Positions 7,364 to 8,190 of a DNA stretch of 14,449 nt are shown one piece after another. The stretch's first letter is position 1; each line of letters opens with the position of its first letter. The notes beneath the pieces are model-generated. The model did not search any database, had not been told where the DNA came from, and saw nothing but the letters and a program-made list of their open reading frames with translations. Source of the DNA: a virus (taxonomy: Duplodnaviria > Heunggongvirae > Uroviricota > Caudoviricetes); the IMG/VR virus record IMGVR_UViG_2875713109_000007; one strand, 5' to 3'. Both the position numbers and the translations under genes were made by a program.

Positions 7364-7726
7364 TCATTCATTCCCCATTTCGGTGATGGTCAGTTCCAGC
7401 CTCCCACCTTTGGTAACAGGCATCTTCACAACGCGGTAATCAACGACCTGAGCATCATCCAGCCAGAAACCTGCTTTGGTGAGTGCGTCAAAAGCGGCTT
7501 TTTGCAGATTATCCAGGTCACGGCGACGGCGATCCGGCATGTGGCACTCAATGCGGATTTTCACAGGCATAGCCAGGCCGATATCCAGCATTGCGTTTTT
7601 AATGATTCGGGCGACGTTATCGCGGTATGCCTGCCCCTCTGCACTGACGTGCGTGCGCCCGCGATTATGGCGGTAATAGCGATTATTGCTCGGAGGCCAG
7701 GGTAATGTGATACTGTAGGTATTCAC
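7364..7726 (-). CDS. rusA: Holliday junction resolvase RusA, 120 aa
   Basis: GTG start at 7726-7724 with [27 protein letters not shown]… matches RusA as I recall it; TGA at 7366-7364. Confidence 0.9.
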
Positions 7727-8190
7727 GCCTTAATAACCCCCTCTTTCAGCCAGATAACCTGTGTTCTCGCCATACCTTACAGCGCGCATTCTTTTGCATA
7801 TGCAGCATCGACAAAATGTGTGCGGCGGTCGATTTCGTCGTGGCAGGCAGAACATGCAATGGTGGCAATCAGGTCTGGCGGTTTGATAGTGGTGATATCA
7901 CCGGTTACGACATCAACCAGGTCTTTGGTTTCATAACCGAGATATGTGTGTTTGAGAGCATCTTTTACCCAAGCTGGAGTGGCGAACGTTTTACCCCTGC
8001 TGATGAGGTATTCACTGATTTCGCTGTACCACATGTGGCTGAGTGCATTCTGGGAAAGACTGCGTTTCTCACGCCACGGTTTAAGCACCATGCGAAAGCA
8101 TTTGCCCTCCTCCAGATAAGGCTGGATCTGCCGACCGATAGCGGTGAAGTTGCCGCGATGTAATTTGATGCCGTCTTGTGAGAGGTTCAC
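7723..8190 (-). pseudogene. NinB-like (ybcN-type) N-terminus fused to a ybcO-like Cys/His C-terminus, interrupted by an in-frame TAA
   Basis: GTG start at 8190-8188 with GGAGGTG SD. NinB-like motifs (RSLSQNALSHMWYSEISEYL) then CSACHDEIDRRTHF. TAA at 7779-7777; the same frame continues [17 protein letters not shown] to TGA at 7725-7723, which overlaps the rusA GTG as GTGA. Confidence 0.6.

Follow-up and report, generated by a model that had tools for sequence, protein, structure and literature searches.

The 137-codon open reading frame (ORF) directly upstream of rusA in this Escherichia coli prophage joins the 5' part of ybcN to an internal part of ybcO, and it carries the marks of two separate lesions, a nonsense mutation in ybcO that came first and a 441-bp deletion that followed. 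Very probably it is a doubly inactivated remnant of the ybcN/ninE/ybcO nin region, left by ordinary neutral decay beside an intact rusA gene.

Prophage Identification and Gene Organization

The window, that is, the whole stretch of 14,449 nucleotides that was analysed (IMG/VR record IMGVR_UViG_2875713109_000007), is a DLP12-type defective lambdoid prophage of E. coli, identified from the ORF map together with Pfam and NCBIfam scans, and it is read in reverse orientation relative to K-12. Sequence CP035331.1 (locus L010) was 100% identical to it over the full window length, and the complete genome PSS-07 (NZ_AP027673.1) showed no mismatches across the shared 14.4 kb, with three indels. The features were located as follows:

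1-750, minus: appY
between appY and the porin gene: tail-fibre remnants
1610-2278: class I SAM-dependent methyltransferase
about 2826-3059: YdfK-like cold-shock protein
3376-3966: Pin-like serine invertase
5487-6569, plus: nmpC/ompC-like porin, intact
6758-7156, minus: quuD
7227-7367, minus: ylcG, with a 4-nt overlap with the rusA stop
7364-7726, minus: rusA, intact, with a 120-aa product identical to K-12 RusA (WP_001099712.1)
7723-7776, minus: former 3' end of ybcO, 17 sense codons and TGA, now untranslated
7777-7779, minus: nonsense codon TAA; GAA (Glu79 of YbcO) in K-12 and phage 82
7777-8190, minus: ybcN'-'ybcO fusion ORF, probable pseudogene remnant, with a GTG start, 137 codons and a TAA stop
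7780-7884, minus: ybcO-derived part, YbcO residues 44-78 of 96, with the CSACH motif
7885-7888, minus: deletion junction, 4-bp microhomology TATC, one copy kept
7885-8190, minus: ybcN-derived part, YbcN codons 1-102 of 151, the last 4 bases being the shared TATC
8187-8288, minus: ylcH (orf33 of phage 82), its stop overlapping the GTG start of the fusion ORF
8340-8312, minus: 29-bp inverted repeat upstream of ylcH
8312-8372 with the repeat, minus: putative promoter upstream of ylcH, -35 at 8372-8367 and -10 at 8349-8344
after ylcH in the gene list: ybcM, ybcL and ybcK
after ybcK in the gene list: frameshifted emrE, then ren
13286-14449, plus: intD

Between appY and the tail-fibre genes, the segment 1610-3966 has a mosaic make-up and resembles Qin- or e14-type material, not K-12 DLP12. 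The porin gene (5487-6569, plus) lacks the IS5 insertion of K-12.

On the minus strand, the fusion ORF begins with GTG at 8190 and runs for 137 codons to TAA at 7779-7777. Past this codon the frame stays open for 17 sense codons until a TGA (7725-7723) that shares bases with the rusA GTG (7726-7724) in the sequence GTGA, the TAA lying 18 codons ahead of the TGA. The initial reading of the letters, made without database searches and referred to here as the sequence-only reading, had reported this arrangement, and each of its positions was recovered. Translation showed that the fusion protein is YbcN 1-102 joined to YbcO 44-78.

The Nonsense Codon and the 441-bp Deletion

Comparison with K-12 (L002) and phage 82 (X92588) revealed GAA in both where the window has TAA, with one or two further differences within the 86 bases around the site. 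Judged against these references, the TAA is a derived G-to-T change that turns Glu79 of the 96-codon ybcO into a stop. Programmed read-through or recoding at the TAA was considered and rejected: the codon is a rare derived SNP of one clone, and the 17 codons beyond it are simply the ancestral ybcO tail.

Alignment of window positions 7364-8400 with PS3Tanimalfeces2 (L001), which is 100% identical on both sides, showed a single gap of 441 bp, close to the roughly 450 bp guessed in the sequence-only reading, and the alignment with the K-12 derivative (L002) contained the same single gap. According to the annotation of these two loci, the removed segment comprises YbcN 103-151 (ybcN encodes 151 aa), the whole of ninE (56 aa) and YbcO 1-43. 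The ybcN-ninE-ybcO-rusA module was whole, collinear and undeleted in 17 phage records; these functional phages, like K-12 and phage 82, encode YbcN and YbcO as two proteins, with ninE lying between their genes, as the sequence-only reading had stated for DLP12.

The tetranucleotide TATC occurs at positions 2013 and 2454 of L001, 441 bp apart, and thus marks both ends of the deleted segment, while the two BLAST pieces obtained with the window overlap exactly at 7885-7888. A direct repeat is therefore present at both ends with one copy left behind, as in a microhomology deletion; if breakpoint pairs in the region were random, only about 2% would be expected to share 4 bp or more. The event looks like replication slippage or an illegitimate recombination mediated by microhomology. 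As 441 is 3 x 147 and ybcN and ybcO are read in the same frame, the fusion stays in frame, an outcome that has a one-in-three chance and is no evidence of selection.

Frequency and Order of the Two Lesions

Alleles were counted among 5,426 complete E. coli genomes with queries of 41 and 44 bases, designed such that every megablast seed has to include the variant site. The TAA allele was present in 5 genomes and the GAA allele in at least 3,017, in agreement with the GAA-to-TAA nonsense mutation predicted by the sequence-only reading, while the deletion junction was found in a single genome, PSS-07. The four TAA genomes without the junction (PS3Tanimalfeces2, TW10690, 11PC, and GPT21-003) have intact ybcN and ninE and a 78-aa ybcO (WP_050487202.1), and their distance from the window is 0-1 SNP over 2.6-4 kb; the K-12 sequence differs at 20 positions. 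Since these four genomes keep ybcN-ninE-ybcO intact, the nonsense mutation preceded the deletion. The sequence-only reading had named reference ybcO genes ending at this TAA as a finding that would speak against a recent mutation; such a gene does exist as WP_050487202.1, but solely within the same near-identical lineage, a trivial case that leaves the nonsense mutation standing.

Exact-sequence look-ups were made in a collection of 15 billion proteins. The 96-aa progenitor YbcO allele, with Glu in place of the stop and otherwise identical, was found on at least 1,000 contigs, as was the K-12 allele, compared to 259 contigs for the 78-aa truncated YbcO and 99 contigs (NCBI, ENA, and Logan assemblies) for the exact 137-aa fusion. 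A hypothetical 155-aa read-through fusion was absent from the exact look-up among these 15 billion proteins. Both lesions are real and lineage-specific. Although the fusion has persisted without change in about 100 assemblies, their near-clonal nature means that they say little on selection.

The most economical history compatible with these sequences leads from the common allele to the TAA allele and then to the 441-bp deletion within one near-clonal lineage. The ancestral genes form a chain, ylcH-ybcN-ninE-ybcO-rusA-ylcG, with overlapping or abutting stops and starts. A G-to-T transversion at ybcO Glu79 (GAA) in one E. coli lineage first created the TAA, shortening YbcO by 18 residues and leaving a 50-nt untranslated gap ahead of rusA. 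In a sub-lineage, a 441-bp deletion between the two TATC tetranucleotides then took ninE as a whole together with the last third of ybcN and the first 43 codons of ybcO, producing the 137-codon chimera. Its product lacks the C-terminal third of the Orf/NinB-like fold, and from YbcO it lacks the N-terminal half of the His-Me finger as well as the last 18 residues of the protein. Deprived of the terminating upstream ribosome of the GTGA overlap, rusA would be expected to be translated somewhat less efficiently. Because rusA is reported to be transcriptionally quiescent in DLP12, these changes would most likely be selectively neutral steps of decay.

Other Decay in the Same Prophage Lineage

The emrE gene (12009-12396, minus) is split by a frameshift into two overlapping ORFs, 12127-12396 and 12009-12170, and the PGAP label on the identical PSS-07 sequence reads 'emrE, frameshifted'. 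According to the ORF map and annotation, no holin, endolysin or Rz genes are present in the window prophage, and the lysis cassette (essD, rrrD, and rzpD) was not found at 4943-5486, between the porin gene and the tail-fibre remnants. The sister assemblies with the fusion differ in their early region: at one extreme kilR-O-P-gam-bet are all kept, and at the other nearly everything is deleted, as in the window. In one of the sister assemblies (L011, GCA_017000975.1), rusA (8465-8827) has an independent TGG-to-TAG change, W10*, at the site equivalent to window position 7698.

Further differences from PSS-07 were observed outside the rusA region. A segment of about 1.8 kb of that genome (L003, 15875-17662), which contains gam, a bet fragment, DUF1382, a TraR-like gene and DUF4222, is missing from the window at about 12852-12857, between the ren/P' remnant and intD; with the sister assemblies that keep still more, one clone thus displays several stages of early-region erosion. 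At window position 4650, 17 bp (TCACAATATAGTTAAAT) that are present in PSS-07 and most sister assemblies are missing. With them the stop of a tail-fibre remnant is lost, and the remnant runs on into the tail-fibre-assembly gene as a 292-aa ORF (4064-4942, minus), a second chimeric ORF that arose from a small deletion.

Intactness, Coupling and Expression of rusA

The rusA frame is intact: its product scored 82 bits against PF05866 (cut-off 22.8) and 279.3 bits against NF007305 (cut-off 200), the latter over positions 1-120 of 120. In the ancestral module, as seen in K-12 and phage 82, the stop of each gene overlaps or abuts the start of the next to form a chain, and the GTGA overlap of ybcO and rusA is the usual arrangement for translational coupling, in keeping with the coupling proposed by the sequence-only reading. 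In the window this chain is broken once, with the fusion stop at 7777 lying 50 nt ahead of the rusA GTG at 7726, so that the upstream stop is no longer at or near the downstream start as it is in K-12 and phage 82. The window retains the ribosome-binding site AGGGGG at 7742-7737 (minus), the one annotated for rus in phage 82. A start-sequestering RNA structure was sought at the ybcO 3'/rusA 5' junction, and the predicted fold (MFE -25.6 kcal/mol) was no more stable than shuffled controls (z = 0.73). From this arrangement, some loss of coupled rusA initiation is plausible, and classical Rho-dependent polarity across the 50-nt gap seems unlikely.

In K-12, rusA of DLP12 is described as 'normally quiescent' and becomes active once IS2 or IS10 upstream supplies transcription (PMC1636454, PMC3533792), and the operon that contains ybcN is likewise described as quiescent (PMC4118853). 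The literature searched for the positions of rus-1 (IS2) and rus-2 (IS10) relative to ybcO places them only 'upstream of the coding sequence.' Since rusA is reported to be quiescent in K-12, the loss of coupling is probably of little physiological effect. By extrapolation from K-12, the operon would also be silent in the strain of the window; some transcription may nevertheless take place, as the putative promoter ahead of ylcH is intact. This promoter is sigma-70-like, with TTGATT and CATAAT separated by a 17-nt spacer. On its 3' side lies the perfect 29-bp inverted repeat, GTCACCGGAG...CTCCGGTGAC, and both elements are base-for-base identical to the 'putative promoter' and the 'possible regulator-binding site' of phage 82 X92588.

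The TAA, with or without the deletion, could instead be adaptive, uncoupling and down-tuning rusA and, by polarity, ylcG and quuD, and thereby lowering the cost of a leaky Holliday-junction resolvase or Q antiterminator. The coupling implied by the ancestral GTGA overlap and the GTG start of rusA are consistent with such an effect, and the W10* change of rusA in the sister assembly could mean selection against RusA, a change that relaxed selection fits equally well. This explanation is nonetheless improbable. The allele is rare, belongs to one near-clonal lineage and was not seen to recur, the gap is just 50 nt long and retains the phage 82-annotated rus ribosome-binding site, and the fold of the rusA initiation region was no stabler than the shuffles. 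Moreover, rusA is already quiescent in K-12 (PMC1636454), and the window has none of the late genes that Q would switch on.

Domain Content and Possible Function of the Chimera

Profile searches recognised both parts of the fusion protein, consistent with the NinB-like N-terminus and Cys/His C-terminus of the sequence-only reading, and showed that both are incomplete. Residues 1-103 matched the YbcN subfamily model NF007281 (PRK09741) with 175.9 bits (cut-off 164), covering profile positions 1-103 of 151 and hence not the full domain of about 151 aa. With the Pfam NinB model (PF05772), the fusion fragment scored 15.0 bits and full-length K-12 YbcN 21.7, both below the cut-off of 23.8; since even full-length YbcN falls below it, the description 'NinB-like' rests on NF007281 and on the published link to lambda Orf. 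The Pfam YbcO model PF07102 (DUF1364, cut-off 29.9) matched residues 100-135, with 37.8 bits for the whole fusion (profile positions 40-75) and 39.6 bits for the 35-aa part (profile positions 43-76), together positions 40-76 of 92 and thus again an incomplete domain. Full-length K-12 YbcO, which is identical to PDB 3g27, scored 144.8 bits. Missing from the fusion are the last 49 residues of YbcN (103-151) and, on the YbcO side, residues 1-43 (with Cys13, Cys21, and His32) by the deletion and residues 79-96 by the TAA.

YbcN has been described as a distant member of the Orf family of recombination mediators, able to bind SSB and single-stranded DNA, the link to lambda Orf having been drawn by PSI-BLAST, Phyre and biochemistry (PMC4118853). 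A sequence search of K-12 YbcN against PDB chains gave no match, so that this relationship rests on the literature. YbcO belongs to the His-Me finger (HNH-like) proteins, and its structure has been solved (PDB 3g27; PMC5714182). A single-sequence AlphaFold2 model of the fusion reached a pLDDT of 36 and a pTM of 0.22, too low for the model to inform on its folding. On the identical PSS-07 sequence, PGAP annotates ybcN and a nuclease as two partial pseudogenes, while the pipelines of GenBank submitters name the ORF 'DUF1364 family protein' (BEB68412.1). Judging from the domain boundaries, neither the YbcN nor the YbcO domain would be able to fold or act in the chimera, which is presumably non-functional.

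Very improbable, and ranked below an adaptive role of the TAA, is a function of the chimera as a new protein, in which an Orf/NinB-like N-terminus that binds single-stranded DNA and SSB is joined to a His-Me-finger fragment, or as a dominant-negative Orf fragment. We give an equally slight chance to its expression from the putative promoter upstream of ylcH, with the product binding SSB or single-stranded DNA and modulating recombination, for example as a dominant-negative mediator; if true, the ORF would be an accidental new gene and not a pseudogene. The fusion is in frame and retains the translationally coupled GTG start of ybcN, and the 102 N-terminal residues that it keeps still pass the cut-off of the YbcN subfamily model. 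Fusions of Orf-family proteins to an HNH domain occur in nature (PMC4118853), and DUF1364 (YbcO) and DUF968 belong to the same His-Me finger group (PMC5714182). Against this, the chimera lacks a third of the YbcN profile and over half of that of YbcO, the N-terminal Cys/His half included, the ybcO part was truncated by the nonsense codon already before the fusion, and PGAP calls both halves pseudogenes. In addition, full-length YbcN alone was insoluble on overexpression (PMC4118853) and the locus is reported to be silent in K-12. An assembly or sequencing artefact, for which nothing spoke but the general risk that any single record carries, is ruled out by independent assemblies, with the exact junction in the independent complete genome PSS-07, the exact 137-aa product on its 99 NCBI, ENA and Logan contigs, and the TAA in five complete RefSeq genomes from different hosts and countries.

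Significance and Relation to Known Systems

With the ORF taken as a decayed remnant, the 137-codon 'DUF1364 family protein' is to be read as a chimeric pseudogene and not as a new domain architecture. The case matters little past annotation, and offers a clean example of ordered, two-step gene decay in a prophage. The 44-base junction and the TAA can be used as lineage markers of one E. coli clone, and for ruv-suppressor genetics with this lineage, it is relevant that rusA is intact but uncoupled from any upstream ORF. Both the type of event and the genes are known and are already present, and flagged, in public records, and no new kind of system is involved.

The closest reference is the DLP12 module of K-12, ylcH-ybcN-ninE-ybcO-rusA-ylcG-quuD, which has the same gene order as the window, and its counterpart in phage 82 (X92588) is orf33-orf151-orf56-orf96-rus-orf45-Q. 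The K-12 flanks are 98.5-99.95% identical to the window and the RusA proteins are identical, while the ylcH/orf33 promoter, the inverted repeat and the rusA ribosome-binding site are the same in K-12, phage 82 and the window. The window differs from both in the loss of 441 bp, in TAA instead of GAA at ybcO codon 79, and in a ybcO-rusA overlap that is no longer used. The 78-aa YbcO allele WP_050487202.1 shares the G-to-T nonsense change and the flanks with the window (0-1 SNP), whereas the genomes that carry it have complete ybcN, ninE and ybcO 5' part, and thus represent the intermediate, pre-deletion state. The PSS-07 pseudogene pair and BEB68412.1 have the identical junction and TAA, and PSS-07 differs from the window in that it still has the 17 bp in the tail-fibre region and, close to intD, about 1.8 kb with gam, bet' and others. 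The Orf-HNH (DUF968) fusions of Gram-positive phages (PMC4118853; group 7 in PMC5714182) have a domain order superficially like that of the chimera, and no homology-based membership among them is claimed for it: in those fusions the domains are complete, whereas in the window chimera both are internally truncated by the deletion and the nonsense codon.
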